This document shows positions 38,534 to 63,800 of a DNA stretch of 64,000 nt, in pieces. The notes beneath the pieces are model-generated. The model was not told the DNA's origin, did not search any database, and saw only the letters and a program-made list of their open reading frames with translations. The DNA is from Candidatus Nanoarchaeia archaeon (GTDB lineage Archaea > Nanobdellota > Nanobdellia > Woesearchaeales > ARS49), in contig JBGPOY010000003.1 of the NCBI GenBank assembly GCA_041488275.1, positions 78,092 to 142,091 of the forward strand, given 5' to 3'. The position numbers were made by a program, and so were the translations under genes. Each line of letters opens with the position of its first letter. The first letter of the stretch is position 1.

Positions 38534-38579
38534 AGCTCCTCTTTGTACGTCTCCGTTGCGGTTGCTTCCTATTTAAATC

Positions 38580-38978: not shown

Positions 38979-38997
38979 GAGACAAAGATGCAATCAG

Positions 38998-39711: not shown

Positions 39712-39773
39712 ACCTCGCTCTCGTTTTGTTTCGTATTTAAGTATGCGTAACTCCTCAATCGTGGAGAACACGT

Positions 39774-42990: not shown

Positions 42991-42991
42991 C

Positions 42992-45782: not shown

Positions 45783-46220
45783 ATGGCAACATTTACCGAA
45801 TTTTTCCGTGACCTGCACCAAGAAATGCAGTACCAACCCAGTAACGCAGTGTTCCTGTACGTCGTGGGCAAGAATCTCGCAAAGCGCAACAAAAACACCC
45901 TGCTGCAGGGCATCCGCCAAGTGGAGACGAACCGCGACATCGCGAAATTCATCTCGCACTTCAAGAAAAGCGGCATCGGCACGCTGAAACTCGTCTCTGC
46001 GGACCCGCGCAAGAAGGAATTCTACTTCGAGCTCAAGAACTCCGTGTTCAAGACCGGACTGAAGCGCCCGAGCTGCAGCGTCGTCGGGGGAATGCTCGCC
46101 AGTCTCGTCGAAGAAACGTACGGGTTCTACGCCGGCGCTCTCGAGACGGCGTGCGTCAGTCAAGGCGACCGGCAGTGCGAATTCAAGGTCAAGATTGTCG
46201 GCAAGGAGCCGCTGAGGTGA
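45783..46220 (+). CDS. V4R-domain protein (second copy)
   Basis: The C-terminus SCSVVGGMLASLVEETYG...ETACVSQGDRQCEFKV is a V4R hallmark. Confidence 0.75.
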   Translation: MATFTEFFRDLHQEMQYQPSNAVFLYVVGKNLAKRNKNTLLQGIRQVETNRDIAKFISHFKKSGIGTLKLVSADPRKKEFYFELKNSVFKTGLKRPSCSVVGGMLASLVEETYGFYAGALETACVSQGDRQCEFKVKIVGKEPLR

Positions 46221-46224: not shown

Positions 46225-46890
46225 ATGACCATCAAGACCGGCTGCGCGGCCGTCGACCGCATTCTCAACGGCAAACTGCCCGACAAGACCGTCGTGCTCA
46301 TCGAGCGCGACACCGGCATGAAGGACAGCCTCGAGCGTTTGTTCCTCCACAACAGCGTGAAGGCGAAAAACGGCGTCGGGTATTACGCGTTCTTCAACCA
46401 AACGAACAAGGATATCGAGAGCGCGTTCAAGGACCAGGGGCTGGACGTCACGCGCGAGATGAACGAGAAGCGCCTGTACTGGATTGACGAGAGCAACCAT
46501 TCCGAGGGCGAGAACGCCATCAACTGCAAGATTGACGAGCTGTTCACGGTCGAACTGGCGATGCTCCAGCTGCTCGAGAGCAACAAGGACAAGAAAATCC
46601 GCGGCGTCGTGCACCTGCTGACGCCGGCGCTCATCGCGAACGAGCCCGTATTGATTTACCAGTTCTTCTCGTACTTAGTCTCGACGCTGAAGAAGTACAA
46701 CACGCTGACCATCTTTCTCATCGAGCAGAATTTGCACGATGCAACCACCCTCAAGGCGATTGAGGGGCTGTGCGACGTCGTGCTGGAGACCAAGCTCGCG
46801 CAGGAAGACTTTGTCGTCAAGACGCTCGTGCGCGTCAAGAAGATGAAAGGCAACTCCGACACCAAGTTCCACGCGCTCCACGTTGCGTGA
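46225..46890 (+). CDS. KaiC-fold paralogue lacking the P-loop (predicted inactive)
   Basis: IKTGCAAVDRILNGKLPDKTVVLIERDTGMKDS aligns with the KaiC N-terminus, but GxxGxGKT is replaced by ERDTGMKD. Confidence 0.7.
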   Translation: MTIKTGCAAVDRILNGKLPDKTVVLIERDTGMKDSLERLFLHNSVKAKNGVGYYAFFNQTNKDIESAFKDQGLDVTREMNEKRLYWIDESNHSEGENAINCKIDELFTVELAMLQLLESNKDKKIRGVVHLLTPALIANEPVLIYQFFSYLVSTLKKYNTLTIFLIEQNLHDATTLKAIEGLCDVVLETKLAQEDFVVKTLVRVKKMKGNSDTKFHALHVA

Positions 46891-46893: not shown

Positions 46894-47475
46894 ATGGCCG
46901 TAAGTCTCCGCGCCGAACTGAGAAGTCTTCCCGAGAACTACATGGTTCTGCTGATTCTCAATGTCAAGCAGTACTTTGAAGGCGTCATTGAAGTGCTCCG
47001 AATGCTGTGCAACGAGGAAAACCTTCCGGGAATCTACATCACGGTGAACAAGCCGTACGGCACGATGAAGGAACTGCTGCGCGACCGGGGCGTCAACACC
47101 TCCCGCATCTTTTTCATCGACGCCATCAGCCAGACCGTGACGCAGCCGAAGCTCACGAACCATCAGGTCATTTATCTCCCGAACCCGCAATCGCTCACGG
47201 ACCTATCGCTCGCGCTCAATGCCGCCGCGACCGCGCTCGAAGGCAGCAAGAAATTCCTGTTCATGGACTCGCTGTCGACGCTGCTGATTTACAACGAGAC
47301 CGAAAGCGTCGCCAAGTTCGCGCACTTTCTCACCATCAAGATGCGCTCGCTGAACATCAAGGGAGTGCTCATCGCGCTCCGCCAGATGCTGGACGAAGAG
47401 CTGATTTTTGAGGTTGCGCAATACTGCGACCGCGTCATCGACCTTTCTTCCGAAGTTATTGAGCTTGACCGCTAG
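46894..47475 (+). CDS. P-loop-less RecA/KaiC-like paralogue (family shared with 53951 and 54547)
   Basis: GIYITVNKPY...RIFFIDAIS...LTDLSLAL...FLFMDSLSTLLIYN are shared with the two downstream paralogues. Confidence 0.7.
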   Translation: MAVSLRAELRSLPENYMVLLILNVKQYFEGVIEVLRMLCNEENLPGIYITVNKPYGTMKELLRDRGVNTSRIFFIDAISQTVTQPKLTNHQVIYLPNPQSLTDLSLALNAAATALEGSKKFLFMDSLSTLLIYNETESVAKFAHFLTIKMRSLNIKGVLIALRQMLDEELIFEVAQYCDRVIDLSSEVIELDR

Positions 47476-47513: not shown

Positions 47514-47888
47514 ATGAAAAAAGGAGGGCAGGTCTCGGTCGAAGCGCTGTTCTCTCTCGGATTTATCGCGCTGATGTTCGGCACGATGCTGCTGTACTCG
47601 TACGAACGCCAGCAAGACCTTCGCACGGCGCGCACGGCAGCCGTGCGGCTGAACGACTGCCTCTCGGTCACGACCGCAATCATCGGACTGCTCGTAAATA
47701 GAGGCGGCACGGCGAACGTCACCGTGACGAACCGCATCGCCGTCAAGTCCGCTGCGCAGGTCGTCGAAGCGGGCGACGATGTTCCGTGCCGGCTTGCTAC
47801 GTCCGCAGTCACGAGCGGCGTCTTTGAGCCGGGCAGGCTTGTCTTCACGTCGCTTCCGAACGGCACCGTCGAGGTGTCGCATGCGTAA
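47514..47888 (+). CDS. Prepilin-like protein (class III signal peptide)
   Basis: MKKGGQVSVEALFSLGFIALMFGTMLLY. Confidence 0.7.
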   Translation: MKKGGQVSVEALFSLGFIALMFGTMLLYSYERQQDLRTARTAAVRLNDCLSVTTAIIGLLVNRGGTANVTVTNRIAVKSAAQVVEAGDDVPCRLATSAVTSGVFEPGRLVFTSLPNGTVEVSHA

Positions 47889-48357
47889 AGGGCAGATATT
47901 CAGCACCGACTTGCTGGTCGCGCTCGCAATCACTGCGCTGCTTTGGGGCTCGCTCGTCTTGGAGTTCCACTCATTCGAGCGCAGAAGTCAGGACGCGGAA
48001 ACCACGCACGCGCTCGAACTGCAGGCGATGCAAATTGTGGACCAGCTTACGCTCTCTCCCGGCGTTCCGTCGGCATGGGAAACGACCGGCGGCGCGCAGG
48101 CGCTCGGACTTGCGCAGACGCCGAACGTGCTTTCCAACGAAAAACTTGCCGCGTTCTTCGCGCTTGCTCCCGACGAGATTCGAAACCAGCTCAATATTCC
48201 TCCGCACCGCTTCCGATTCCGGATTCTTGCTTCCGACGGAACGCCGCTCGCGTCCGTCGGAGACCTTGATTCAACGAGAAAGACTCCCGTCATCGCGCTG
48301 CGGCGCCCGGCAGTAACCAATGCAACAACGACTATCGTGGAATTTACCCTGCAATAG
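47881..48357 (+). CDS. Prepilin-like protein (class III signal peptide)
   Basis: MRKGQIFSTDLLVALAITALLWGSLVL. Overlaps the upstream gene by 8 nt. Confidence 0.75.
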   Translation: MRKGQIFSTDLLVALAITALLWGSLVLEFHSFERRSQDAETTHALELQAMQIVDQLTLSPGVPSAWETTGGAQALGLAQTPNVLSNEKLAAFFALAPDEIRNQLNIPPHRFRFRILASDGTPLASVGDLDSTRKTPVIALRRPAVTNATTTIVEFTLQ

Positions 48358-48373: not shown

Positions 48374-48760
48374 ATGCTGAGCCTCGACGCCACGCTCGGC
48401 GTCATTCTGGTTATCACCCTGCTCATCGCAGCAGACGTACAGATGCGCCACGCGAGCGAGGACTCATTGAGCTCCCTAAGCGTCGCGCAGTTCGGCGGCG
48501 CGGCAACCGCGACGCTCGACAAAACAGGCGTCCTCGCAACTCGGGACGCAGGAAGTATTGAAGCCGCGTTAACTCCTCTTCTCCAAGCAAATGTCGCGAT
48601 GCGGATTGCAGTGATGTGCGACGGCGGAACTAATCTCGCGACGAGCGCAACGATTCCTTCCAAACAATTCATCGCATCAGGAAAACGATACTTCGTGGTG
48701 ACCTCGGGAAATTCCATCGATGACCGGTGTGCCGCGACGTGGTGGGCGTGGACGCGATGA
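48374..48760 (+). CDS. Pilin-like accessory protein with an N-terminal hydrophobic helix (atypical signal)
   Basis: MLSLDATLGVILVITLLIAA. It lacks a basic-Gly cleavage motif if the ATG at 48374 is used. Confidence 0.55.
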   Translation: MLSLDATLGVILVITLLIAADVQMRHASEDSLSSLSVAQFGGAATATLDKTGVLATRDAGSIEAALTPLLQANVAMRIAVMCDGGTNLATSATIPSKQFIASGKRYFVVTSGNSIDDRCAATWWAWTR

Positions 48761-49554
48761 AACGCGGCGTGCTGCTTGCGTTGGGAAGTTTCTTTGTCGT
48801 TACTGCACTTTTCGCGTTTGCACTATTCATCGCGTCCCAGCAGAATGCGCACGACAAGCACGCAGTCCAGCTCGCCGCGCTCGAGCGCACTGCCGCGGTT
48901 GAGGATTCCGTGCTGAGTTCGCTTGGCGCGGTCTGGAACGCGACCGCGGGAATGAGCGTCGATGGCGGCGCAGACGACGTGACCGTGCACGATTCGCTTC
49001 CCGCCTCCGGAGTTTTGTCGTCGGAAATCAGCAATCTCAACACCTTCATCACGGCGCAGGATACCAACGTGCACATCGACATGAATGGAAACGCCGGCAC
49101 GCTCGCCCTGCCCGACGGCGTCACGTACGCGCGCACCGCCGACCGCCAAGTGACGGTCAACGCCGCGCCTCTGCCCGGCAATCGCTATGCGGTCACCGTC
49201 ACGGTCGGCGCGAACATCACGTCCTGCGCCGAAAGCGTGACCGCGGGAGCGTTCGAGCTCGCCGTGCGCGTGGACGGCGCGGGCGGAAGCGACTGCGTGA
49301 AAGAGCTCGGCGTCGACTCCGCCGCAAACAACCGCGTCGCCATTGGCACGGACGCGGGAACGATTGATGTGGACTTGAATGCAACCACGCTCATCATCAG
49401 CAGCGCGCCGGACATCGAACTCGCGACCCAGCTGCGGTACAACCGCACCTCTGGCCAGCGAGGCGAGGCGCGGCTCATGAACGTGCAAGCGACTGTCGCG
49501 ATTCCGAATCTGAAATTGGTGCGAACGGATACGCCAATTGTGGCAGTGTGGTGA
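48757..49554 (+). CDS. Prepilin-like protein (class III signal peptide), larger subunit
   Basis: MKRGVLLALGSFFVVTALFAFALFI. ATGA overlap with the upstream gene. Confidence 0.7.
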   Translation: MKRGVLLALGSFFVVTALFAFALFIASQQNAHDKHAVQLAALERTAAVEDSVLSSLGAVWNATAGMSVDGGADDVTVHDSLPASGVLSSEISNLNTFITAQDTNVHIDMNGNAGTLALPDGVTYARTADRQVTVNAAPLPGNRYAVTVTVGANITSCAESVTAGAFELAVRVDGAGGSDCVKELGVDSAANNRVAIGTDAGTIDVDLNATTLIISSAPDIELATQLRYNRTSGQRGEARLMNVQATVAIPNLKLVRTDTPIVAVW

Positions 49555-49660: not shown

Positions 49661-49722
49661 GCGTAACTACCATTCTTGAATGGTGACGAATGCTTTTAAG
49701 TATTCTTAGGGAAGGTCTGACT

Positions 49723-50277
49723 ATGTTAGACAAACGGCTCATGAGGGACGTCAGCGACCTTCTTGAGCTGAACGTAGGGGATGAGAAGATTGTCCGCATC
49801 ATGATGGTGCGGGGCTTCACGACCGAGCAGGTGAAGCGGGTCATCAAGGACATCCGCTCCAAGTCCGGCACCAAACACGAGCCGGTGGCGCATCACAAGA
49901 GCGCGCCGGTCACGGAAACCATCGAGAACAGCCCGAGCAAGCGGTTCGGCATTCTGGGCAAATTGTTCGGCAAGCAATCTGATGAAGAAATGATTGCGGA
50001 AGAGACCGCCAAGCTCGTGAAGCAGGAACAGCACTTGAAGAACGAGGAGGCGAGAGTCCACGCCGAAGTCCAGCAGCTGGTGCAAAAGGCAAAGTCGTTG
50101 GAAGGCCAAGAGCCGAAACACGCGCGCTCGCCCGCGGGCATTCCTGACGACGTCAAGGACGTCCTGCATATTGTCGACGGTTTGTTGGAAAAACTTCCCG
50201 ATACTGAAATCGAACGGTTCACGCAGTCACCGCAGTTCGAACGCTACAAAGCGGTGATGAAGAAATACCTCGGCTGA
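49723..50277 (+). CDS. Hypothetical coiled-coil protein
   Basis: The start was set at MLDKRLM, about 25 nt downstream of the TATA-like CTTTTAAGTATT. The longest ORF starts at 49690. Confidence 0.6.
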   Translation: MLDKRLMRDVSDLLELNVGDEKIVRIMMVRGFTTEQVKRVIKDIRSKSGTKHEPVAHHKSAPVTETIENSPSKRFGILGKLFGKQSDEEMIAEETAKLVKQEQHLKNEEARVHAEVQQLVQKAKSLEGQEPKHARSPAGIPDDVKDVLHIVDGLLEKLPDTEIERFTQSPQFERYKAVMKKYLG

Positions 50278-50296
50278 CGCGGCCGCGGGGGGAAAT

Positions 50297-50560
50297 ATGG
50301 GTCTGCTGAAGAAAGCTGAACTGCAAAGTACGAAGGGTGCGGGAGTACGAGACGACCGCGTTGAGACCGACATCGACCGGCTGTACGCGCTCGTGCTCGA
50401 GAAAGCGCCGCTGAAGCTCGGAGCCGCCGCCGTGTTGCTCGGCAAGCGCCGCGAACTCGTCGAGGACTGGGCGCGCACGCTCGAAGCCGCGTCGCTCATC
50501 AAAATCCACTACCCCGCCGTCGGGGAGCCTGAGCTGGAGCATCCGAATGGACGTCGTTGA
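50297..50560 (+). CDS. Small hypothetical protein (possible wHTH), N-terminal GLLKKAE motif
   Basis: 87 aa. Overlaps the ATPase gene by 14 nt. Confidence 0.55.
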   Translation: MGLLKKAELQSTKGAGVRDDRVETDIDRLYALVLEKAPLKLGAAAVLLGKRRELVEDWARTLEAASLIKIHYPAVGEPELEHPNGRR

Positions 50561-52043
50561 GGAATATCTCGTTTCCGCCGAGGGCGCGACCGCGAACGTC
50601 ACGATTCGCGGAGAAGGAACCACCGCGCGCACGTACGACGTCTCCATTCCGCGCATCGCCGCGGGAACGCAGGCATTGCTGGAGGACATCAAGCGCCAGC
50701 TCGCCGCGACGCTGAGCGTCAGTCCGGCGGAACTGCTCGACAACAACGCGGTCGCCTCGCTCAAACAGAAAGTCGCGATGGACGCGCGCACCATGCTCAC
50801 GGCGCGATTGCCCGAAACGCAGGAGCAGCTGCGCGATTTGCTCGTTACTTCAATTCTCAACAGCACGCTCGGCTTGGGCGACATCGAATACCTGCTCAAC
50901 GACCCCGTGCTGGAAGAAATCGTCATCCCCTCGGCAAACGCCCGCGTGCGCGTCTACCACAAAAAGCACGGCTGGCTGGAAACCAATGTTGTCGTCTCGA
51001 GCGAGCAGCAGGTGCAGAACTACGCGAGCATCATCGCCCGAAGAGTAGGCAAGCAAGTCACGACGCTCACGCCGCTGCTTGACGCTGCGCTCACGACCGG
51101 AGACCGCGCGAACGCCGTGCTCTATCCCATCTCGAGCAAGGGCAACACCATTACCATCAGAAAGTTCGCGCGCGAGCCGTGGACGATTGTCGACCTCGTC
51201 ACCAACGGCACGATTTCGTCCGGCGTCGCCGCCCTCCTGTGGACCGCGATTCAGTACGAAATGAACATTCTTGTCTCGGGCGGCACGGCGTCGGGAAAAA
51301 CGTCGCTGCTCAACGTCATGCTCGCGTTCATGCCGCCCAACCACCGTATCCTGAGCATCGAGGACACGCGCGAACTGCAGCTGCCCGACCATCTGTTCTG
51401 GGCGCCGCTCACGACACGCGCGCCCGGTCCGGAAGGCGAGGGCGAAGTCACGATGCTCGACCTGCTCGTCAACGCGCTGCGTATGCGCCCCGACCGCATT
51501 GTCCTCGGAGAAGTGCGCCGCCAGCGCGACGCGGAAGTGATGTTCGAGGCGATGCATACCGGCCACTCGGTATACGCGACCGTCCACGCGGACTCGGCGC
51601 AGGAGACCATTCGCCGGCTCGTGTTCCCGCCCATCAGCGTGCCGCCGAACCTCCTGCAGGCGGTGAACCTCAACGTCGTGATGTTCCGCGACCGCCGCAG
51701 GGGAATCCGCCGCGTCTCGCAGGTCGCCGAATTCGTGACGGCGGAAGAAGGCGAACGCGTCACGGTCAAGCCGAACGTCATTTACCGCTGGCTTCCGGAC
51801 GAGGACACCATCGTTCCGTTCAACAACAGCCTCCGCTTCTTCGAAGACCTGTCGCGGCACACCGGACTCACGCAGGACGACATCACCGCCAACGTGATGG
51901 ACCGCAAGGCGGTGCTTGACTGGCTCGTGCAGACGAAACAGCGCGACCTCGCGTCCGTCGGGAGAATCATGCAGGAATTCGCGCTCGACCCCGCCAAGGT
52001 CATCAGGCAGGCGCGCACCGCGCTGAAGCGTTCCGAGGGATAA
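50547..52043 (+). CDS. Type IV pilus/archaellum-type assembly ATPase (FlaI/ArlI/PilB, GspE-VirB11 superfamily)
   Basis: Walker A VSGGTASGKTS, SIEDTRELQL, RPDRIVLGEVR and HTGHSVYATVHA motifs. Confidence 0.95.
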   Translation: MDVVEEYLVSAEGATANVTIRGEGTTARTYDVSIPRIAAGTQALLEDIKRQLAATLSVSPAELLDNNAVASLKQKVAMDARTMLTARLPETQEQLRDLLVTSILNSTLGLGDIEYLLNDPVLEEIVIPSANARVRVYHKKHGWLETNVVVSSEQQVQNYASIIARRVGKQVTTLTPLLDAALTTGDRANAVLYPISSKGNTITIRKFAREPWTIVDLVTNGTISSGVAALLWTAIQYEMNILVSGGTASGKTSLLNVMLAFMPPNHRILSIEDTRELQLPDHLFWAPLTTRAPGPEGEGEVTMLDLLVNALRMRPDRIVLGEVRRQRDAEVMFEAMHTGHSVYATVHADSAQETIRRLVFPPISVPPNLLQAVNLNVVMFRDRRRGIRRVSQVAEFVTAEEGERVTVKPNVIYRWLPDEDTIVPFNNSLRFFEDLSRHTGLTQDDITANVMDRKAVLDWLVQTKQRDLASVGRIMQEFALDPAKVIRQARTALKRSEG

Positions 52044-52925
52044 ATGCGGCTTCCCGTGACGCTGCTCCCGGGGCTGGCGCTCCACCGCATTACCACCCCG
52101 CTCACGGGCGTCGCGAGCGGTCTTGAAATCGCGTTTCCTTTTCTGAAGCTGCATTTGCGGCACGCGGACATCAAAATGAGTTCCGCGGAATATCTCGCGG
52201 CAAACATCGTGTCCAGCGCGGTTTTCGGCGCTGCGGTATTCGCAATCGCGCTGTTCGTCACCTTGACTGCAGGTCTCACTCCGCCCCTGCTCATTTCCCT
52301 CGGCGCGGGGTTGATTATCGCGGTGCTGGTCTGGTTCCAGAATCTGCTCGTTCCGAAAGCGCTCATCGCGAAGAAAGTTTCGAGCCTCGAACGCAACCTG
52401 ATTCCCGCGCTGAGCGACATGCTCGTGCAGCTGCACTCCGGCATTCCGCTGTTCGACATTCTCGTCAACATCGCGAACGGCGATTACGGCGCGGTGTCCA
52501 CGGAGTTCAAGCGCGCCGTGCGCCGCATCTCGTCGGGAGAAAGCCAGGTGTCCGTGCTTGAAGAACTCGCTACGGGAAACCCGAGCGTGTTTTTCCGACG
52601 CCTCCTTTCCCAAGTCGTCAACGCGCTGAAAACAGGAGCAAGCATCAGTTCCGTCCTGACGGACGGCATCACGCGGCTGAGCGATGAACAGGTCATTCAA
52701 ATCCAGAAGTACGGCGGCTACCTCAACAGTCTGACGATGTTTTACCTGATGACCGCGGTCATCGCGCCCGCGCTGCTGATGACCGGCGCGGTTGTCCTGT
52801 CGTTCTTCTTTTCCGTGACGCCGTTCTGGACCGCCATCGGATTTGTCGTCATTTACTTCATGGTCGTCTTCATCCAGGTCGCGTTCCTCGGCATGCTGCG
52901 CACGCGGAGGCCGAACCTGCTGTGA
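52044..52925 (+). CDS. T2SS-F-domain platform protein, first half (TadB/FlaJ-like)
   Basis: 293 aa with 3-4 TM helices flanking a cytoplasmic helical domain (LIPALSDMLVQLHSGIPLFDIL). Confidence 0.85.
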   Translation: MRLPVTLLPGLALHRITTPLTGVASGLEIAFPFLKLHLRHADIKMSSAEYLAANIVSSAVFGAAVFAIALFVTLTAGLTPPLLISLGAGLIIAVLVWFQNLLVPKALIAKKVSSLERNLIPALSDMLVQLHSGIPLFDILVNIANGDYGAVSTEFKRAVRRISSGESQVSVLEELATGNPSVFFRRLLSQVVNALKTGASISSVLTDGITRLSDEQVIQIQKYGGYLNSLTMFYLMTAVIAPALLMTGAVVLSFFFSVTPFWTAIGFVVIYFMVVFIQVAFLGMLRTRRPNLL

Positions 52926-53863
52926 GACCGCACGGACTCCGCGCACGGTTTGCGATGGCGTTAGATCACGCAGGGTTGCGCGTGCGCGTCGGAAGGTTCC
53001 TCGGCACCACCGCGATGCTGTCGCTGGTCGCGGGAATTATCGTCGGGATGGTTGCAGCGCTGCTCGGGCAGAGCGGCTGGCTGTTTGGGGTGGGCGCGTT
53101 TGTGCTCGGGGAAATCGGCTGGGCGTTCTGGCTCGTGCTCCGCGCGGACGCGAAATCCCAGTTCATTGAAAGCGTGCTTCCCGACGCGATGGACCTGATG
53201 GCCGCGAATTTGCGCGCCGGACTGACGACCGACCGCGCGTTGCTGCTCGCCTCCCGGCCGGAATTCGGACCGCTACAGGAAGAGCTCGACCGCGCCGGGC
53301 GCGAAATCGCGCTGGGGAGAAGCGTTCCGGACGCGCTCGCCGCCCTCGGCGCGCGCATTTCCTCGGAGCGCGTGCGCAAGACGCTCGCCCTCATCATTTC
53401 CGGGCTGCGCTCGGGCGGCAGGCTCGCGGAACTGCTGTCGCAGGCGTCGCTCGCGCTCAAACAGCAGACGGTCGTGGAGCGCAAAGTCGCGAGTACCGTG
53501 ACCGTCTACGTGATTTTCATTTTCACCGCGGTCGTGCTGGGCGCGCCGTTTTTGTTTGCCGTGAGCGCGTTCCTGACCGAAACGCTTTCGGGAATTATCG
53601 GGAACATTGACATCAGCGACGTGCCTACGGGATTTCTTCCCGGAGTGACGCCCGGCGCGGGGCTTCCGCTCGAAGCGGTCACGATTCTTGCGGTCGCGCT
53701 GCTGCTCACCATCGGACTGGTCTCCTGCTTGGTCGCCGGACAAATCGGGACGGGCAGAATGCGATCCGGTGTCAAATACGCGCCGTTGGTGCTGCTCAAT
53801 GTCGCGCTGTTCTTCCTCATTCGCTGGGGGCTGAAGGCGGGATTGGGCGTCCTTTTCGGGTAA
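52922..53863 (+). CDS. T2SS-F-domain platform protein, second half (TadC/FlaJ-like)
   Basis: 313 aa with LPDAMDLMAANLRAGLTTDRAL. GTG start overlapping the upstream stop. Confidence 0.85.
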   Translation: MRPHGLRARFAMALDHAGLRVRVGRFLGTTAMLSLVAGIIVGMVAALLGQSGWLFGVGAFVLGEIGWAFWLVLRADAKSQFIESVLPDAMDLMAANLRAGLTTDRALLLASRPEFGPLQEELDRAGREIALGRSVPDALAALGARISSERVRKTLALIISGLRSGGRLAELLSQASLALKQQTVVERKVASTVTVYVIFIFTAVVLGAPFLFAVSAFLTETLSGIIGNIDISDVPTGFLPGVTPGAGLPLEAVTILAVALLLTIGLVSCLVAGQIGTGRMRSGVKYAPLVLLNVALFFLIRWGLKAGLGVLFG

Positions 53864-53950
53864 GCAAGATTTATAAAGCGCCCGTGCATTAAGCACGGTA
53901 AAAAGGGTGTAGTATGAACGTCACGAACCAAGTGCGTTCCTGGGGGAGTT

Positions 53951-54520
53951 ATGGCTGAGAACATCCTAAAGACCCTGCAGGACAACAAGATTGTGTTGTT
54001 TATTTCTTCGCAGAACTCTCACGCGGATACGCTGGCCGAAGTCGCCCGTCAGGCACAGCGCGTGTATGCCGCTCTGGCCATCATCAGTTACCGCACGACA
54101 TCAGGGGCGCTTGAAGCCGCGCTTTCCAAAGCGGGCGTCAAGACCAAGAACTGTTTCTTTCTTGACCCGCTGACGGGCAACGCAAAAAAAGCGTCGGCAA
54201 ACACCCTGCTCACGTCATCACCCGCAGACTTCACTGAAATGGGACTGAGCATCAGCGAACTGCTCAAGACGGGAAACTTTCCCTTTGTATTGTTTGACAG
54301 CCCCGCGGCAATGCTGCTGTACCAAGACCACGAAACCGTGCTGCAATTTATGCACAGCATCATCACCAAATGCCGCGTCGCGGGCATCCAGCTCGCGTTC
54401 GTTGCCGTCGAATCCGCCGCAAGCCAGGAATTAATCAAGGACCTGCACTTGTTCGTCGACGACGTGCTGAACCTTGAGGAAGGAACGACCGGCGCCCGCC
54501 TTGTCGAGGCGTTCAAATGA
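53951..54520 (+). CDS. P-loop-less RecA/KaiC-like paralogue
   Basis: ALAIISYRTT...CFFLDPLT...FTEMGLSI...FVLFDSPAAMLLYQ. Same family as 46894 and 54547. Confidence 0.7.
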   Translation: MAENILKTLQDNKIVLFISSQNSHADTLAEVARQAQRVYAALAIISYRTTSGALEAALSKAGVKTKNCFFLDPLTGNAKKASANTLLTSSPADFTEMGLSISELLKTGNFPFVLFDSPAAMLLYQDHETVLQFMHSIITKCRVAGIQLAFVAVESAASQELIKDLHLFVDDVLNLEEGTTGARLVEAFK

Positions 54521-54546
54521 GCCTGCTGCAGGTCAGGTGAGCGAGC

Positions 54547-55092
54547 GTGGCGGGGATGGAGCTCAGCAAGGAACTGCAAGGACTCGCGTCCGCGTTCAGC
54601 ATGCTCGTTATCACGTCCACCCGTAAACTGGGCGACGCCACGACGGAAGTAATCGACTATTTCACGCGCCAAGGAACGCCCGGCGTGCTGGTGACGTTCA
54701 GCAAGCCCCATCAGGCGCTGGTGGAACAGCTGCACCGCCAGCATATCGAAACGTCCCGTCTTTTTTTTGTCGATACCATTCCCGGAACAGGCCGCGAGCG
54801 CGAGGACAACGCGCTGCACGTGCAGAGTCCGAGCGCGCTGACCGACATCAGCATCGCAATCTCGCAGTTCGCCCACAGCGTCCCGGGCGATCGCTTTGTG
54901 TTCGTGGACGCCATCAACGCGCTGCGCGCGTACAACGATGACGCGGACATTGAGCGGTTCGTCGGAGCCATCGCGGCAAAAAGCGCAACGCTCGGATTGA
55001 AAGTCGTTCTCATGTATATCCGAGACCCCGCGCTCGAGAGTTTGGAGCGCACCGTCTATCAATTTTTTGAGAAGGTGGTCGAACTTGGCTAA
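54547..55092 (+). CDS. P-loop-less RecA/KaiC-like paralogue
   Basis: GVLVTFSKPH...LFFVDTIP...LTDISIAI...FVFVDAINALRAYN. GTG at 54547, with the ATG at 54556 as an alternative. Confidence 0.7.
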   Translation: MAGMELSKELQGLASAFSMLVITSTRKLGDATTEVIDYFTRQGTPGVLVTFSKPHQALVEQLHRQHIETSRLFFVDTIPGTGREREDNALHVQSPSALTDISIAISQFAHSVPGDRFVFVDAINALRAYNDDADIERFVGAIAAKSATLGLKVVLMYIRDPALESLERTVYQFFEKVVELG

Positions 55093-55381
55093 CACGCTCA
55101 CCGCCGCCGTGCTGATTGCGGTCCTGCTGCTGCAGGCCGCGACCGTGCTCTTTGCGTACCGCGCGTGGCGCAGGACCGCGGGCGGACTGCGCACGTTCGT
55201 CGTGCTGCTGCTCATCGCGGGATTCCTGCTGATGCTCCGCACCGTCGTGCATTCCGCACGTTATTTGCTGGGGCTGAACTACATCGCGCACGTGTTGGAG
55301 CACATCATCATTTTCGCCGCATTCGTCGTGATGACCGCGGGCGCGCTGCTCATGCACCGGCTCGCAAAGGGGATGACCTGA
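55067..55381 (+). CDS. Small membrane protein (3 TM helices)
   Basis: Uses a TTG start (55067 or 55085). It overlaps the preceding gene. Confidence 0.5.
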   Translation: MRRWSNLANTLTAAVLIAVLLLQAATVLFAYRAWRRTAGGLRTFVVLLLIAGFLLMLRTVVHSARYLLGLNYIAHVLEHIIIFAAFVVMTAGALLMHRLAKGMT

Positions 55382-55932
55382 TGATTGACGCAGCGCTTGC
55401 CGGAACGTTGATTTTCAATTTGACGTACGCGACTATCGCGCTCATCATTGTCATTCTCGCAGGAAAAACAATGCTGTACTTCCGCGTCAGGAAGTCGCGG
55501 TTCGGCACGATTCTCCTGCTGTTAATGCTGATGATGTTCTTGTTCCTGATCGCGGAACTGTTCCATTTGGCCGACATGCGGGGCGCGCTTGCGCAATCAG
55601 AACTGTATTACAGCATCACGTCCGTCGCGGGGTTCATTGTATTTGCGCTGCTGATGCAGCGCATCCAGGCATTCAGCCAGAGCGTCGGCTTTGCGCAAAG
55701 CGATTTTGCGATGGCGCTGAAAGTGCAGAACCAGCTGTGCACGGTTTGCCGCCGAGTCTCGCTCAAGGTTCCCGTGTCGACGCTGCTGAAAGAAAACATC
55801 ATCACGCCCGACGGCACGCTGAAAGAGGGCGTGACGGTCGAGCAGCTCGTTGACCGCGGCATGGCGGTGCATCCTCCGCACACCGCTCCGGCAAAAACCG
55901 CTTCCGCCAGAAAAAAGAGGCGCAGCAAGTGA
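55381..55932 (+). CDS. Membrane protein (4 TM helices) with a basic C-terminal tail
   Basis: The start was trimmed to MIDAALAG (TGATG junction). Contains the CTVC pair. Confidence 0.65.
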   Translation: MIDAALAGTLIFNLTYATIALIIVILAGKTMLYFRVRKSRFGTILLLLMLMMFLFLIAELFHLADMRGALAQSELYYSITSVAGFIVFALLMQRIQAFSQSVGFAQSDFAMALKVQNQLCTVCRRVSLKVPVSTLLKENIITPDGTLKEGVTVEQLVDRGMAVHPPHTAPAKTASARKKRRSK

Positions 55933-56957
55933 CCGACAGCGAGGAAGCGGTCCAAGGCGTTGAAGTTCCTTCCTTTGACAAGCCGCGCAAGAAAGGGCTG
56001 CTGAAAAAAGCGGAGGGCGTCAAGAAAGGTCAGGACGCCGCGGCGGATGACATCGTGAAAGCGCGCGCCGCGGAACTGACCATCGAAACTCCGCAAGAGG
56101 CGCGCGAAGAACGTTCTGAAGTTCCCGCCGCGTTTGACATGGCCGCAATCAAGGAAGCGATTGAGTCACGGCTGAAACGCAGGGAAGGACCTTCCGAAAT
56201 CTCGCTGGAGACCGGCAACGTCATCCCGGGAACCGAAACCGGCGAAGCTCGGCGCAAGGATTCAGTAATCGAACGCGTTCCCTCGGGCATTCCCGGTCTT
56301 GATAGTCAAACCGAGGGCGGCTTCGTGAAGCGGAGCATCAATCTCGTGACGGGAAGCCCGGGCGCGGGCAAAACCATCTTCGCCGCGCAGTTTATTATTT
56401 CGGGCATCGAACAGCATCAGGAGCCGGGTCTCTACATTTCTTTTGAGGAGAAAAAAGAGAATTTTCTCAAGTACATGAAACAGTTCGGCTGGGATTTTGA
56501 GAAGCACGAAAAAACAAACAAGTTCGCGTTTCTCCGCTACAGCCCCGAGCAAGTGCACAAGCTGCTCACCGAAGGCGGAGGCCTGGTCGACACGCTCGTG
56601 CGCAAGCTGGGCGTGAAGCGCATCTGCATCGACAGCATCAGCGCGTTCACCCTGCTCTTCAAAGACGAGCTTTCGGCGCGCGAATCTCTGCTGGGACTGT
56701 TCGAGATGATCGAGGGATGGGGCGCAACGACGCTCCTGACCGCGGAGCAGGAAGCGGAGCCCGAACGCCACGAACCCAGCGTCGTTGAGTTCGAGGTCGA
56801 TTCCGTCATTTCCCTGTACAACTTCCGCAAGAAGAACATCCGCCAGCGCGTCGCCGAAATTATCAAGATGCGCGGCACCCGCTTTGCGCAGAAGGTCTTT
56901 CCCATCAAGATCGGGGACGACGGGATGGTCTTCTATCCGGAAGAAGCGGCGTTTTAA
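55929..56957 (+). CDS. KaiC-like ATPase, intact Walker A, with a roughly 110-aa charged N-terminal extension
   Basis: VPSGIPGLDSQTEGGFVKRSINLVTGSPGAGKT and ICIDSIS motifs. The extension contains KKGLLKKAEG. GTG start (GTGA overlap). Confidence 0.9.
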   Translation: MTDSEEAVQGVEVPSFDKPRKKGLLKKAEGVKKGQDAAADDIVKARAAELTIETPQEAREERSEVPAAFDMAAIKEAIESRLKRREGPSEISLETGNVIPGTETGEARRKDSVIERVPSGIPGLDSQTEGGFVKRSINLVTGSPGAGKTIFAAQFIISGIEQHQEPGLYISFEEKKENFLKYMKQFGWDFEKHEKTNKFAFLRYSPEQVHKLLTEGGGLVDTLVRKLGVKRICIDSISAFTLLFKDELSARESLLGLFEMIEGWGATTLLTAEQEAEPERHEPSVVEFEVDSVISLYNFRKKNIRQRVAEIIKMRGTRFAQKVFPIKIGDDGMVFYPEEAAF

Positions 56958-57270: not shown

Positions 57271-57852
57271 TTGAATAAAAAAGAGGGAGCTGCTAAGGTA
57301 CACCCTGCTCTGTCCAAAGAGCACGCTGACTTCTTACACAAGTATTACGCCAACGCCAGCAAGGAGGAACTCCTCGAAGCGTTCATCGCTCACCTCCAGA
57401 AAGAACACGCTCTCTCGAACGAAGAAGTCGACCACCTGCTGACCGAGGCAAAGCAGCACCAGGAAACCCTCCTCCCGGTGAATATCTTCCAGACCGAAGC
57501 TCTTTCTTCCCTTGAAGCCATCGTCAAGTACCTGAAGGAAAACAAGCACCTGTCCTTCCACGAGATCGCGGTCCTGCTGGCGCGCGACGACCGCACCATC
57601 TGGACGACGTACTCCAAGTCGCGCACCAAGATGATCGCGCCCTTCCATCTTCTGCCGAGCAAGCATGTCGTGCCTGCCGTGCTCTTCGCCGAACGAAGAC
57701 TGTCGGTTCTTGAGACGTTAGCTCACTACCTCAAGGACACGCTGCATCTGAGCCTGCACGACATCGCCACGCTGCTGAACCGGGATGACAGGACCATCTG
57801 GACCGTGTGCAGCCGCGCGCAGAAGAAACTCGCGAAGGGAGGTGCGCCATGA
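57271..57852 (+). CDS. Duplicated helix-turn-helix protein (two LuxR/sigma70-region-4-like HTH repeats), putative regulator
   Basis: LSSLEAIVKYLKENKHLSFHEIAVLLARDDRTIWTTYSKSRTKM and LSVLETLAHYLKDTLHLSLHDIATLLNRDDRTIWTVCSRAQKKL. TTG is the only start available after the in-frame stop at 57262. Confidence 0.65.
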   Translation: MNKKEGAAKVHPALSKEHADFLHKYYANASKEELLEAFIAHLQKEHALSNEEVDHLLTEAKQHQETLLPVNIFQTEALSSLEAIVKYLKENKHLSFHEIAVLLARDDRTIWTTYSKSRTKMIAPFHLLPSKHVVPAVLFAERRLSVLETLAHYLKDTLHLSLHDIATLLNRDDRTIWTVCSRAQKKLAKGGAP

Positions 57853-60800
57853 GACGCACCTTCCTCGTCGGGCTCTGTCTCCTGATTGCCCTGGCGGCCG
57901 CCTCGGCGGTCGCGGGACAGTCGTGGATCACGAGCGAGAGCGTGTCGGCGGGCATGCTCGTGTACGGCAGCAACAACACGAACGACACGGCCAAGTTCCG
58001 CCAGTGGAACGGAACCTCAGTTGCGGCCGTGACCAACGGAACCTTCGACCTCGAACAAAACGGAGCGGCATATGCGGGCGCGCCCATCTGGAGCATCGTG
58101 CGGGCATCGCCGACGCGCAACCAGAGGATATCGCTGATCGACTACAAGAACTCAACCAACGGCCTGGGAGTCATTTCCGCGGCAGTGTGGAACGGCTCGG
58201 TGTGGCGCGACAACATCAACCTGTCGCTGAACATCTCGACAAACAACACGGAGCTGCGCGGGTTCGACTTGCAGTACTTCTCGTCGCAGTACAACGGAAG
58301 CACCGGCAACTACAGCGCGATGGCGGTGTACAGCGTCAACACATCGAACGCGAACTTCACCATCTGGAACGGCACGAACTGGACCATGACGGGCACGATG
58401 CCGATTGACAACTGTACGAACGTCACGCGTTGGATTGAAATGTCCGCGGGACCGAACGGCACGATGTACGAGGCGGACATCGACGCGTCGGGCGACATCT
58501 GCGCCAATGTCTGGAATGGAACGCACTGGAACGCGACCGCGACCCTGTCCACCGCGACGACGGATTCCAGCAGGAAGTTCTTCACGGTCAACACGGAATC
58601 GCAGTCGGGCGACGGCGTGGTCGTGTTTGAAAGCTCGACCGCGGGCATCCTGCAAGTGTGCCAGTTCGACACCGGCAACACGACATTCCAGAACGGCTGG
58701 TGCAACGCGCTGCGCAGCACCGCGGGCGTCGGAAGCCAGAACACCTGGGTGACGTCAGGCGCCGACCCGAGCAACGACACGATTTTCATCGCCACGTTCG
58801 AAGCGACGCAGAACGACATTGACGCCATTGCCTGGAACGGCACGGCGCTCGGCAACGCGGGCACGCCTACCGCGGTTGACGCGACTGCGGGAACGGGCAG
58901 AGGACCGGTTGCAATCTCGGTCATCGGAGAAACACACACCGCGTTGCTCGTCTACGGCGACACCGGAGTGAACAACCCGAGCTTCTCGATTTGCACCACC
59001 CCTGCGAACTGCCAGGCAGGAACGTGGGCTGCGGGCGCGACGACCGGCATGACCAACTGCGGCGAAGCCTCAGCGGTTGACTTCCTCAGTCTCACCTCCG
59101 ACTCCTTCAGCAACGCTTCGATGATGGTTGAACAAAGCCAGGCAAACCACATCACCTGCACTCAGCCGTGGAACGGAACCGCGACAACCGTCGCGGGCTT
59201 CCAGAACGGCTCCGTGACGCTCGGCAACGGCACGATACTCAGCACCGCGTTCAGTGCGGATTTCGCCTTTGACCGCTACAAGGACCTGCTTGCTCCGACG
59301 GTCAACCTCATCGGACTGCCGAACAACAGCGTCACGACCAGCACGAACCTCAGCCTGTCGTACAACGTTTCCTCCTCGGCGCCGATTGTGGAATGCAACC
59401 TGACCATCAACGGAGTGGTCAATGAGACGCGCGGCGAAACGCCTTCCAACGTCACGGCAAACTTCAGTTCGAAGAACTTCACCGGAGGCCAATACTTGTG
59501 GAACGTCACGTGCCGCGACTTCTACAACTTGACCAACACGAGCGAGACGCGCAATTTCACGGTTGAAACGGCGGGCACCATCAACGCGACGATGCTCACG
59601 CCGACGCCGAATGCCGTGACCGAGCTCGTATCAAACTCCACGTTCCTGATGAGCACCAATGTGTCGTGCTCCGGCGCGGCGGGCGCGTACTGCGGCAACG
59701 TCACCGCTTACGCGCGTTACAACTTGACTTCAAACATGTCGAACATCAGCGGCGTCTTCGCAACGCCGTTCTGGACAAACTCGACGCAGCCGCAGTCCTG
59801 CATCCTGTACGCGAACCAGTCCTGCCAGTTCAACTGGACCATTAACGCGACGGGCACGTTCAACCAGACGTTCCTTGTCCAGACGAACACGTCCACAAAC
59901 CGCACGGGAGTGACGACCGTCATCAGCTCAAACGCGACCATCAAGGTCATCGCTCCACTCGGCGCTCCGAACATCTCCGTGAACGTGAGCCGCCCCGTCA
60001 CCGGCGGCACCATCACGAACGTTTCCGAGAACCAGACCTTCACGTTCAACGCGACGCTCACCTGCGTCGGTCTTCCGGGAACGTCGTGCGGGAATGTCAC
60101 GGCGACGGCGCGCTATAACTACAGCGCGGCCGGAATCCAAAACGTTCCCCACGGCGGCTCGACCATCGGCGGAGGAACGACGAACATTAACCTGCCGTCG
60201 ACGCTGGTCAACAACGCGTCCGCCGTGCTGTTCTTCAGCGGGCGGCAGAGCTCGAACTCACCGACGGAAGAGAGTGTCGGCGGGTTCATCATCAACAGCA
60301 CCACCATGCGGTTCGTCCACCAACCGGCTACAACGTCCCAGCTGAACTTCAGCTGGTATGTCCTGAACTTCAAGGACGGGGTCCGCGTCTTCAGCGAGAA
60401 CAGCCCCGCTCCCGGCGCGGGCGTGGAAAGCGCCGCGGCAATCGGAAGCCCGATTGACACGAACAAGTCGTTCGTGGTTCCGCTCACGTTCAACAACCAG
60501 GGAGCAATCACCGGCGTCGACGACTTCGCGCGTGTCAGGATTAATGACAGCAAGACGGTCGCCCTCCAACGCTTCGGCGTTGCCGACCCCGGCGACAACG
60601 TGAGCTGGCAGGTCGTGGAAATGCCGGGAGCATTTGTGCAGCGCGGCGTCATCACCAGCCCCATAGGCGAGAACTTCACGGTCATCAACCTGACCACTGC
60701 CGTGGACCTGACGCGCACGTTCGTGACGTCGTCCTTCACGTACCAAGCGGACAACCACAACGCGAGCAGCTACGGCTTCCGCGTGCAACTGCTCAACAGC

Positions 60801-63800
60801 ACCACGCTCATCTTCGCGCGCAACACGTCCGTCGGGGCGGCGAACCTGTCGTGGGAAGTGGTCCAGCTGCCGCTCGGCGAGAAGGTCTCGCAATTCGTGA
60901 CGCACTTCGCCAACGGCGAACTCGACAAGAACGTCTCCATCAACATCACCAGCGTCGATAACGTTGTCGCGTTCTCGGGCGTGGCCGGAATGGCGGGACT
61001 GTCGCTGGGCAGCACCGACTATAACTTTGACGACATCACCGGCGAATCGATGTTCTCATTCAACATCACCACGACGGCGAACGTGAACGTGCAGCGTGAA
61101 ATCGCCAACAGCACGTCGGACGTCGGCTGGTATCTCATCGAGTTCAACCCCGCGGGCATCGGCGACGGCTTCTCGGCCATCAACACGACGCCGGGCGCGC
61201 AGCCGGTCTGGAGCCAGACGCCGGTGACGCAGTCGTGCATCCTGCTCGCGGGCCAGAGCTGCATCGTGAACTGGACGCTCAACGGCACGGGGCTGCTGCA
61301 GACGTTCATGGTCGGCGTCAACTCCTCGGGCGGCGAAGTGAACATGAGTTCCTCTACGGACGGCAACGCGACCGTTTACGTCGCCGACAACACGACGCCG
61401 GTGGTCAAGAACATGAGCCCTGTTGCGGGCAGCCTGTTCTCCCCCGGAACGCTGATACAGATTTCCGCAAACGTCACGGATAACGTCGCAGTTGATGGCG
61501 TGTACGCCAACATCACGTTCCCGAACGGCACCATCCAGCCGCTCGTCCTCCTGATTGACGGAGGCGTTCGGTATAACGCGAGCTTCACCGCTCCCACGCT
61601 CGACGGCGTCTACAACGTCACGTTCGGCGCAAACGACACATCGCAGAACATGAATACCACCGAGCGAACGAATTTCACCATTGATGGTTTCGCGCCGGGC
61701 ATCACGCTCAATTTCCCGGGCAACGGCACGAACACCACGAGCGCGACCGTCACGTTCAACTGGAGCGCGATTGACAATCGCGCAGCGTCATTCAACTGCA
61801 CACTGACGGTCAACAACACGGAAACCAATGTCTCCGTGACGACCGCCAACAACACCAACACATCGGTAAACGTGGTCTTCACGTCCAACGGCACGCAATT
61901 CTGGAACGTCACGTGCACGGACAACGCAGGCAACCTCAACACGAGCGGCACGCGCAACTTCACGATTGACCAGATACCGCCGGCGTTCGCGAACAACATC
62001 AGCTTCCCAAGCTCGCCGGTGATTTACAGCGCGAGCGCGAGCTACCAGTTCAATGTGACGTGGAACGACAACGTCACCGCAGTCTCCTCCGTATCAATCA
62101 CGACGAACTTCACGGGCGCGAACACCTCAACGTTGCTGCCGGGAGTCAACAGCACCTATAACTACACCTTCGGACCGCTCGCCGTCGGCAACTACACCTG
62201 GAGCCAAAACGCGACCGACGCTGCGGGCAACACCAACAGAACGTTTACCTATAACTACGTGGTGCAGCAGGCAACGACGGGCTTGAACATCACGAGCCTG
62301 CCCAGCGACACAGTCAATTACGGAACGACCACCAACGTCACGTGCACGGCAAACACCAGCCAAGTGAACGTGTCGCTGTTCCGCAACGGAACACTGGTCA
62401 GCGTCTCGGACAAGCAAACGCTCGGCGCGGGACTCTATAACTACACGTGCCTGAGCAACGCCACGCAAAACTTCACGTCAGCAATCACCACCATCAACGT
62501 GACGGTCAACCCGATTGCCGCAATCATCAACCTCACCCTGAATGGAACTGCCGGAAACATCACCATCCCTGCGGGCCAGAGCATCAACCTCACCACGCAA
62601 ATCCAGAACGGCACCGGAAACCTCGACCTGTTCAGAAACGGAACACTACTCGTGTCCGGCGCATCTCCGCTGAGCACGAACAGCTCCTTCCTCTCGCCAG
62701 GACTCTATAATATCACCACGCGGCTGAACGCGACGCAGAATTTCACACTGCAGAACCTCACGTACTTCATCAACGTGCTTGACGTCGTGCCGCCCGGAGT
62801 CATCCTCGTGAGCCCCGCAGACAGTCTCAGCACGTCCAGCTTCACCCTCACGTTCAACTGGACAGTCATTGATGACTTCACGAACTCGAGCAACTGCACG
62901 GTCCGCGTCAACAACACGGAAACGAACGTTTCCGTGACGTCGCTCAACAACACGAACACGAGCGTCAACGTGCTCTTTGTCGGCACGGGAACCCGCTTCT
63001 GGAACGTCACGTGCACGGACAGCGCGGGCAACGTCAACACCAGCGCGACGCGCAGCTTTGTCATCCAGACGGCCAACACGATTCCCAACCTGACCCGCGC
63101 GGTGCTGAACTCGACCAATAATGCGCTGAACACGACGAATGAGAACTTGACGCTATTCCCCGTGAACGCGACGGATGTCGAGGGCGATGCGGTCATCAAC
63201 ATCAGCGACTGGCGCAGGAACGGCTCGTCCATCGCCCTCCTGAACCTGCCGTTCGTGACCAACACGACCGATGCAAGCATTGGAGCAATCCGCGACTACA
63301 GCCAGCTTCAGGCGAACGCGACGCTCGGCAACGGCTCGCTCGGTTCCGTGCCGACGTGGAACGCGTCGGGTCCGCTGAAGAGCTCCTATGAATTCGACGG
63401 CGTCAACGACTCCATCCAGACCGACAGCCAGACGCTGAAGGACTCGGGCAACTTCACCATCACGATGTGGTTTAAGACCAACACCACCATCTTCTCGACC
63501 ATGCTGCTCTGGGAGGGCGGAGCCGCCTCGAACGGATTCGGCAACGCGCTCCCCGCGAGCGACCCCGAAATGCACATCATGACGGGCTACATTCAGGGAG
63601 CGCCGCTGCCTGCGTTGAACGACACCATCGGCTTCTACCTCGGAGACACCGACCCGGCGTTCTCGAACGACACGCTGTTGCTCCTCACCAACTTCACGGA
63701 CAACCAGAACTGGACGTTCCTGACCATCACGGTCGGCGACATGAACGTGTCCCCGCACGCCGAGATGTACCTCAATGGGCGGTTCATCACGGCAGACAAC

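Follow-up and report, generated by a model that had tools for sequence, protein, structure and literature searches.

The very small episymbionts known as DPANN archaea are thought to rely on pili and giant surface proteins to attach to their hosts, and their pilus machinery has hardly been studied. The subject here is a co-directional gene block for a putative type IV filament machine in a 64,000-nt stretch of a Candidatus Nanoarchaeia archaeon genome (Woesearchaeales; assembly GCA_041488275.1, contig JBGPOY010000003.1, positions 78,092 to 142,091 of the forward strand; hereafter the window, whose own numbering is used throughout). Among the described systems with which it can be compared, clade 1 and clade 2 archaeal type IV pilus (T4P) loci contain two tadC-like genes, and KaiC arCOGs have been linked to T4P (Makarova 2016, PMC4858521). 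Clade 2 is said to include some Nanoarchaea, and the same study reports membrane-tethered winged helix-turn-helix (wHTH) transcription factors (ArnR, arCOG00381) in archaeal filament loci (PMC4858521). Epd-like pili and Tad systems share two one-domain platform genes that arose by fission, and a FlaH-like second ATPase is encoded adjacent to them (Denise 2019, PMC6668835). Within DPANN, a T4P island with TadB and TadC has been presented in a figure (PMC6393860), and Nanohaloarchaeota Tad clusters contain two kaiC genes (PMC9563170). An earlier reading of the block from its letters (the sequence-only reading) had presented both a split platform and a KaiC-pilus association as unusual; the former was already established for archaeal pili (PMC4858521, PMC6668835), and the latter was already documented (PMC4858521, PMC6668835, PMC9563170).

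The core of the block encodes the following products, in which labels of the form L### denote loci of a comparison set of 80 DPANN loci that were fetched around ATPase homologues and onto which the window proteins were mapped (TM, transmembrane):

49690-50277 (likely true start 49723), + strand: helical/coiled-coil protein; orthologues in L081, L083, L009 and L024.
50297-50560, + strand: 87-aa winged-helix protein, with a disordered N-terminal MGLLKKAE followed by a wHTH domain (AlphaFold2, Foldseek).
50547-52043, + strand: PilB/TadA/GspE2-type secretion ATPase (motor); T2SSE PF00437, 1.3e-35, 123 bits against a cut-off of 24.9.
52044-52925, + strand: platform protein 1, one T2SSF domain; PF00482, 4.6e-13, 49.7 bits against a cut-off of 25.2.
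52922-53863, + strand: platform protein 2, one T2SSF domain; PF00482, 1.4e-15, 57.8 bits against a cut-off of 25.2.
53951-54520, + strand: P-loop-less KaiC-like protein a, 189 aa; DUF7504, 25.9 bits (threshold 27), weak NCBIfam FlaH match; orthologues in L081 and L083.
54547-55092, + strand: P-loop-less KaiC-like protein b, 181 aa, cassette gene 1; DUF7504, 21.4 bits (threshold 27), weak Pfam KaiC match.
About 55085-55381, + strand: small 3-TM membrane protein, cassette gene 2; two copies in L083.
55381-55932, + strand: 3-TM membrane protein with a cytoplasmic CxxC...HxPH tail, cassette gene 3; L081 keeps the tail only.
55929-56957, + strand: single-domain KaiC-like ATPase; PF06745, 1e-58, 198.9 bits, match from residue 117.

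Open reading frame (ORF) listing and Pfam/NCBIfam scans recovered every gene of the sequence-only list on the + strand at the coordinates it gave, in agreement with the contig's public gene calls, and synteny extends over the whole arrangement in L081/L082, from a relative with a 74%-identical ATPase. The structural reading of a non-archaellum type IV filament motor whose platform is split in the manner of TadB/TadC, with KaiC and pseudo-KaiC genes behind it, was likewise borne out. We interpret the block as the core of a DPANN archaeal T4P (Tad/Epd-like) biogenesis operon that would work by the mechanism proposed below, and assign this interpretation a probability of about 0.55. The Tad/Epd-like placement draws on domain content, gene order, the split platform and profile scores.

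The best match of the ATPase in the PDB, and its closest solved relative, is Archaeoglobus fulgidus GspE (afGspE, 2OAP; 231 bits), followed by FlaI (202 bits) and CpaF (173 bits). The ArlI equivalog model NF058587 reached 281 bits, where its cut-off is 550, and the TadA equivalog TIGR03819 reached 189 bits, below its cut-off of 373. With the ArlI, ArlH and ArlJ models all far under their cut-offs, the ATPase is, by these profile scores, a non-archaellum filament motor, as the sequence-only reading had proposed. Its homologues are 52-74% identical, with values of 52-60% across DPANN, and the named ones are mostly labelled as Woesearchaeota, Nanoarchaeota, Pacearchaeota and other DPANN lineages.

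The two platform ORFs behind the motor overlap by 4 nt (GTGA, 52922-52925) and encode collinear paralogues that are 24% identical, with 4-5 TM-like segments. Platform protein 1, which carries the name TadC at JGI, aligns to positions 48-250 of the 484 of UpsF, corresponding to the N-terminal half of two-domain platforms, and platform protein 2 aligns to UpsF 264-438 and ArlJ 267-432, corresponding to the C-terminal half; the ArlJ model scored 16 bits against a cut-off of 400. Two T2SSF genes lie behind the ATPase in 75-77 of the 80 loci. The 4-nt overlap could reflect a frameshift or assembly error at about 52922 in what was one two-domain gene, an outcome named beforehand as one that would overturn the claim of a split platform. 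Over the 78 DPANN loci in which the split was counted, however, 77 have separate ORFs, which usually overlap by 4 nt or lie 2 nt apart, so the same junction types recur in independent loci and a frameshift is excluded. The 74%-identical relative is split likewise in two independent assemblies, and each protein is a complete collinear one-domain unit that differs strongly from the other in sequence; the probability of an artefact is accordingly negligible. Because separate ORFs occur in nearly all of these loci and the two proteins map to the halves of UpsF and ArlJ, the platform split is real and ancient.

Downstream of the platform genes, the KaiC-like ATPase contains a Walker A motif (GSPGAGKT) and an FEE catalytic pair and has the features of a RecA-type core. 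The ArlH model NF052589 gave it 47.8 bits against a cut-off of 215, whereas KaiC models gave 138-161 bits, and by these scores the protein is KaiC-like rather than an ArlH. Circadian KaiC is a different type: each KaiC here is one domain of ~230 aa, with no CI+CII arrangement, and no KaiB-like gene was detected among the scanned ORFs. The charged N-terminal extension, put at 110 aa in the sequence-only reading, measures 112 aa, of which 39% are charged. Conservation of KaiC near the ATPase and platform genes had been named beforehand as a test that could refute the association, and 29 of the 34 fully flanked loci, over which KaiC distances were counted, have a KaiC gene. It is co-directional and within 6 kb downstream of the ATPase in 25 of the 34, and within 3.2 kb, directly behind the platform genes, in 20. 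The association of KaiC with the locus is thus conserved.

Upstream of the ATPase, the 87-aa protein had been listed as a possible wHTH protein and treated as incidental; the winged-helix fold is now confidently predicted, and the wHTH domain proves to be the most constant accessory of the ATPase, with a position directly upstream of it in 76 of the 80 loci. The 87-aa gene overlaps the ATPase start by 14 nt, and wHTH genes are often translationally coupled to the ATPase. An AlphaFold2 (AF2) model built with seven homologues has a predicted local distance difference test score (pLDDT) above 90 for residues 21-80, a disordered N-terminus and the topology H-H-H-E-E, and its Foldseek matches are winged helices of MarR, ArsR, SmtB, CadC and Rpc34 (TM-score 0.6). 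In most relatives the wHTH forms the C-terminal domain of a larger polypeptide that also has TM segments and a linker rich in K and E, whereas in the window lineage it is small, soluble and preceded by a separate coiled-coil protein, as also in L081 and L083 (coiled-coil gene fragment visible). The more distant L024 encodes a TM-bearing coiled-coil protein and then a 179-aa MGLL...wHTH protein. Word-indexed searches returned 5 proteins for the 87-aa protein and 7 for a 60-sequence domain alignment, and a full HMMER scan was needed; across 1.84 billion representatives it found 2466 wHTH-family proteins at E≤1e-3 and 792 at E≤1e-10, in which the domain is mostly C-terminal. The top HMMER matches P0128 and P0130 were rejected as generic multi-HTH proteins outside the family. 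No Pfam family covers the wHTH domain, the 87-aa protein has no Pfam HTH match at E<0.1, and no sequence match to the Pfam ArnR family was found among the 87-aa protein and the wHTH domains.

The coiled-coil protein before the wHTH gene peaks at residues ~105-140 in a crude heptad scan and contains an amphipathic KRFGILGKLFG segment and a conserved C-terminal LLEKLPxxEIxxF...F..Y motif. The helical hydrophobic moment of KRFGILGKLFG is 0.36, above the 0.27 of the Escherichia coli MinD membrane-targeting sequence (MTS). By tblastn the protein was found in only 2 of the 80 loci, and its copy in L024 has TM segments. A conserved segment, KRFGILGKLFGK (KRFGGLAKIFGR in L081), covers residues 84-98 (49939-49983, + strand) and likewise exceeds the MinD MTS in helical hydrophobic moment. 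In some relatives the counterpart of this protein has TM segments instead of the amphipathic segment.

The peptide GLLKKAE, reported by the sequence-only reading in both the 87-aa protein and the KaiC extension, has exactly two occurrences when the window is translated in all six frames:

50300-50320, + strand: copy 1, N-terminus of the wHTH protein.
55995-56015, + strand: copy 2, extension of the downstream KaiC-like ATPase.

When the 20 proteins of the block are shuffled, 5.6% of the replicates contain a shared 7-mer, and the identity on its own is only mildly unusual and is weak evidence. The wHTH N-terminus is kept as MGLL[KR][KR][ATV]E in five orthologues while the linker behind it diverges, and MGLLxKxE recurs in distant family members (P0186, P0209, P0253, P0271 and L024), TM-containing ones included. 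The KaiC extension keeps PKK-[GS]LL[KVD]KAE between divergent flanks, as GLLVKAE in L081 and SLLDKAE in L083, and this copy was seen in only three related genomes. Because it is kept in orthologues, in distant members and in KaiC extensions despite divergent flanks, the peptide is, from these alignments, a conserved short linear motif, and we infer that it may dock one partner common to the wHTH protein and KaiC. A role as an amphipathic membrane anchor was considered and rejected: the hydrophobic moment of the peptide is low (0.12-0.15), and its presence in TM-bearing members indicates that it does not replace a TM segment.

The co-directional block is wider than the interval first assigned to it (49723-56957), which left out four upstream pilin-like genes and a second KaiC/V4R/pseudo-KaiC module. 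It starts at least at 47514, and probably at 44940 or 39980, and it continues beyond 56957. The additional genes and the cluster that diverges from the block are as follows, where a slash marks a cleavage-like site after a K/R-G motif:

39980-44979, + strand: V4R-like, FIST sensor, 409-aa (weak AMP-binding match), LuxC/aldehyde-dehydrogenase-like and 162-aa unknown proteins, before the upstream KaiC module.
44940-45773 (public call start 44976), + strand: intact single-domain KaiC-like ATPase of the upstream module; PF06745, 8.4e-52, Walker A GTPGTGKT; syntenic in L081.
45783-46220, + strand: V4R-domain protein of small-molecule-binding type; PF02830, 1.3e-7, 32.0 bits against a cut-off of 31; syntenic in L081.
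46225-46890, + strand: KaiC paralogue with a degenerate P-loop; PF06745, 7.6e-12 over its full length, without Walker A.
46894-47475, + strand: P-loop-less KaiC-like protein (DUF7504); PF24336, 1e-8, 36.3 bits against 27; PF06745, 5e-5; without Walker A.
47514-47888, + strand: pilin-like protein 1 (MKKGG/QVSVEAL...), single N-terminal TM-like segment; homologues upstream of the ATPase in 9 loci, in the same order.
47881-48357, + strand: pilin-like protein 2 (RKG/QIFSTDLL...); homologues upstream of the ATPase in 21 loci.
48374-48760, + strand: pilin-like protein 3 (RRG/VMLSLD...); homologues in 7 loci.
48727-49554, + strand: pilin-like protein 4 (MKRG/VLLALG...), 265-275 aa; homologues in 6 loci.
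57271-57852, + strand: protein with two HTH repeats; weak HTH_11, HTH_38 and Sigma70_r4_2 matches; orthologues in L081 and L083.
57849-64000 (runs off the window end), + strand: start of a giant secreted adhesin-like protein, an open frame of >2050 aa with a signal peptide.
38998-39786, - strand: third intact KaiC, with RecA core, Walker A/B and EE features.
38072-38993, - strand: two pilin-like genes (N-termini KKGQAALEFL and KRGQVALEVL) beside the third intact KaiC, in a cluster that diverges from the main block.

In the four pilin-like ORFs upstream of the motor, the K/R-G cleavage-like motif is followed by one hydrophobic segment, and the four are syntenic in relatives; pilin-like protein 4 is probably a minor pilin or adhesin. 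The two genes at 38072-38993 are candidate major pilins by their N-termini, and no archaellin domain was detected by Pfam in neighbouring ORFs. Synteny with L081 holds from the FIST gene onward, and the genes at 39980-44979 could provide sensory or metabolic input to the KaiC set. Downstream, the double-HTH gene is separated from KaiC by a 313-nt gap, and its stop codon is overlapped by the start of the giant gene, whose product contains Big_13, Big_7 and Laminin_G_3 domains and many N-glycosylation sequons and has a 7947-aa orthologue in L081. Rfam and tRNA scans gave nothing that bears on the block. The remainder of the window has an ordinary chromosomal context, with two adjacent tRNA-Ala genes (GGC and CGC anticodons; 2261-2430, - strand) and an FtsZ gene (32060-33259, + strand). 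The window also encodes a bacterial-type prolipoprotein diacylglyceryl transferase (Lgt; 17296-18138, - strand; PF01790, 5e-74), an enzyme that is unusual in an archaeon.

The assignment of the two proteins behind the platform genes as P-loop-less KaiC-like proteins was upheld by the lack of Walker A, by weak DUF7504, KaiC and FlaH matches, and by hhalign to KaiC (E 1e-4, probability 58%, degenerate P-loop position). They and the protein at 46894-47475 align at 24% identity. A structure predicted from three paralogues, with a pLDDT of 64, has the KaiC-like PH0284 as its best match by TM-score, whereas signal recognition particle GTPases dominate by E-value, and the predicted structure lends weak support to a KaiC-like fold. 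P-loop-less KaiC-like genes occur in 16 of the 82 loci over which their recurrence was counted, often just behind the platform genes and beside a tandem KaiC pair. The second of the two window genes belongs to a cassette (pseudo-KaiC, 3-TM protein, 3-TM protein with CxxC...HxPH tail; 54547-55932) whose copy number ranges from 0 to 2 among three close relatives: the window has one copy, L083 two (5252-7947) and L081 only a 66-aa remnant of the tail (13910-14110). In L013, L017, L051, L074, L004 and L022 there is a recurrent triad in which a tandem pair of KaiC genes comes after a DUF7504-like gene, the latter often on the other strand. The triad lies near the platform genes or upstream of them and matches the "two copies of kaiC" of Nanohaloarchaeota Tad clusters (PMC9563170).

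Set beside the known systems, the block shares with Epd and Tad (PMC6668835) a PilB/TadA-family ATPase, two contiguous one-domain T2SSF genes (platform fission), an adjacent second ATPase of the RecA/KaiC superfamily or ParA type (FlaH-like in Epd), and short pilins with class III-type signal peptides, which are here predicted from the N-termini. However, the order platform, platform, ATPase, second ATPase of those systems is replaced here by ATPase, platform, platform, KaiC; the second ATPase is much closer to KaiC than to ArlH/FlaH, unlike in Epd; a wHTH-domain gene precedes the ATPase; and TadZ, the secretin and Flp of Tad were not found here. Clade 2 T4P (Halo pilus PilB3/PilB4 type; PMC4858521) are likewise non-archaellum systems, often with two tadC-like genes, variable pilin sets and KaiC-family ATPases (arCOG01171/01174/01175) in or beside the operon. 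Their description, unlike the locus studied here, contains no ATPase-adjacent wHTH gene (the term HTH is absent), no P-loop-less KaiC/DUF7504 genes and no pseudo-KaiC/membrane-protein cassette. The Nanohaloarchaeota/Undinarchaeota clusters of PMC9563170 also bring TadA, TadB, TadC and kaiC together in DPANN genomes, and those containing kaiC are similar in that no prepilin peptidase was found and pilins were hard to annotate; that account consists of gene names only and mentions no wHTH partner, pseudo-KaiC genes or conserved peptide. The archaellum ArlI-ArlH-ArlJ set has in common a hexameric ATPase, a single-domain KaiC-like protein and a T2SSF platform, and its membrane-anchored coiled-coil scaffold ArlX resembles the TM, coiled-coil and wHTH proteins of the relatives in architecture only. 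It differs in that the ArlI, ArlH and ArlJ models score far below their cut-offs here, the platform is split, and archaellins and ArlF/G were not found.

How the companions of the motor act is where other explanations compete. With MarR and ArsR winged helices as top structural matches, the 87-aa family could consist of DNA-binding MarR-like regulators, mostly membrane-tethered like ArnR, that autoregulate the pilus operon and adjoin the ATPase merely through a first-gene position. Eight of 60 domain homologues match Pfam MarR, one homologue is annotated as a MarR regulator, and membrane-bound wHTH regulators of archaeal filaments are known (PMC4858521), including ArnR/ArnR1, which are likewise encoded in a type IV filament locus, that of the Sulfolobus archaellum. 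ArnR, however, is an activator that binds DNA, with the wHTH at its N-terminus and TM segments at its C-terminus, whereas the domain described here is usually C-terminal, is acidic and is soluble in the window lineage. Helix 3 and the wing, which would contact DNA, are predominantly acidic (columns 34, 37, 38, 44, 45, 58 and 60 are 50-87% D/E), the conserved wing tip YPxFGEPEL contains no basic residue, and the domain has a mean net charge of -1.5 and is net negative even in K-rich proteomes. Since the would-be DNA-contact positions have this character, a protein-binding adaptor is favoured on sequence grounds; the frequent translational coupling to the ATPase and the lack of any HTH family match for the window protein also speak against a DNA-binding regulator, which we consider unlikely. 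Somewhat less unlikely, though still improbable, is a broader regulatory explanation in which the KaiC and pseudo-KaiC genes form a separate signalling hub that receives input from V4R and FIST sensors and membrane proteins and acts transcriptionally, through the wHTH and double-HTH proteins, on the pilus and adhesin. Within 18 kb there are seven genes of the KaiC superfamily as well as V4R and FIST sensor domains, KaiC genes of T4P loci were treated as expression regulators in Makarova 2016 (PMC4858521), the double-HTH gene lies between KaiC and the adhesin gene in three genomes, and the 313-nt gap behind KaiC suggests that the HTH and adhesin genes have a promoter of their own. In most DPANN loci, however, one single-domain KaiC gene lies close behind the platform genes and in the same direction, with no sensor genes, an arrangement that resembles ArlH-ArlI, and neither a KaiB-like nor a histidine-kinase output partner was seen in the block.

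The giant secreted LamG/Big protein gene directly downstream, an arrangement seen in three genomes, also raises the alternative that the machine is a short pseudopilus or a secretion/uptake device serving export or display of the giant protein, or uptake of DNA or nutrients from the host. DNA or nutrient import has been proposed for DPANN pili (PMC9563170), and the genes that may encode the major pilins, by their classic GQAALEFL N-terminus, are located apart from the block at 38072-38993. The 313-nt gap and an HTH gene nevertheless intervene between KaiC and the adhesin gene, and the presence of such a giant gene was checked in a minority of the 80 loci; the sequence itself fits pilus and pseudopilus alike, and we regard a pseudopilus or uptake device as very unlikely. 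Several observations also weigh against the interpretation as a T4P operon core with the mechanism given below. The pilin calls are based on N-terminal sequence patterns, with no Pfam match, and no prepilin peptidase (Peptidase_A24: PibD/EppA/TadV) was found among the Pfam-scanned ORFs of the window; by analogy with the DPANN clusters of PMC9563170, the peptidase may be encoded elsewhere in the genome. Five of the 34 fully flanked loci have no KaiC nearby, so KaiC is not obligatory, and the structural model of the pseudo-KaiC proteins is of low confidence. No wHTH-ATPase fusion was seen among the longer ATPase homologues, whose extra residues are K-rich tails; the eight homologues of 570-696 aa that were tried as Rosetta-stone evidence carry such tails at the N-terminus, without a wHTH. 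A regulatory role of the 87-aa protein is possible by analogy with the membrane-tethered wHTH factors of archaeal filament loci (ArnR, arCOG00381), and the mechanistic steps are ones that we infer beyond the gene content.

For the T4P operon core, the proposed mechanism is as follows. The ATPase hexamer would drive pilin insertion through a heterodimer of the TadC/TadB-like platform proteins, and KaiC would be to the motor what ArlH is to ArlI, a partner that depends on nucleotide or phosphorylation and controls the assembly or activity of the motor. The wHTH protein would be an adaptor that places the ATPase, KaiC or both at the membrane; here it is soluble and has a coiled-coil partner, and in most relatives TM segments with a linker rich in K and E tether it. 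The P-loop-less KaiC paralogues, together with their membrane-protein partners, may be inactive subunits or input adaptors that feed signals to KaiC, and the MGLLxKxE of the wHTH protein, copied in the window lineage into the KaiC tail, would be a linear motif that binds one common partner. The resulting pilus would most likely serve host-cell attachment together with the downstream giant adhesin. It is also conceivable, but doubtful, that the wHTH adaptor family, KaiC and the dead KaiC paralogues constitute a hitherto unrecognised cytoplasmic module, an ArlX/ArlH-like ring or switch with MGLLxKxE docking, competition between wHTH and KaiC for one binding site in the window lineage, where both carry the peptide, and KaiC-timed or KaiC-gated assembly.

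Collectively, the split platform and the KaiC partners were already described and leave the picture of Tad/Epd-type archaeal pili unchanged. For the wHTH family, the MGLLxKxE N-terminus and the variable pseudo-KaiC cassette, no description was found in the literature searched, and we consider them modestly interesting. The wHTH proteins form an unannotated family of about 2,500 cluster representatives that is worth a name. The companions of the motor, wHTH upstream and a KaiC-like ATPase downstream, have good comparative support across DPANN, and by analogy with ArlH-ArlI they are concrete candidates for regulating a non-archaellum archaeal pilus.

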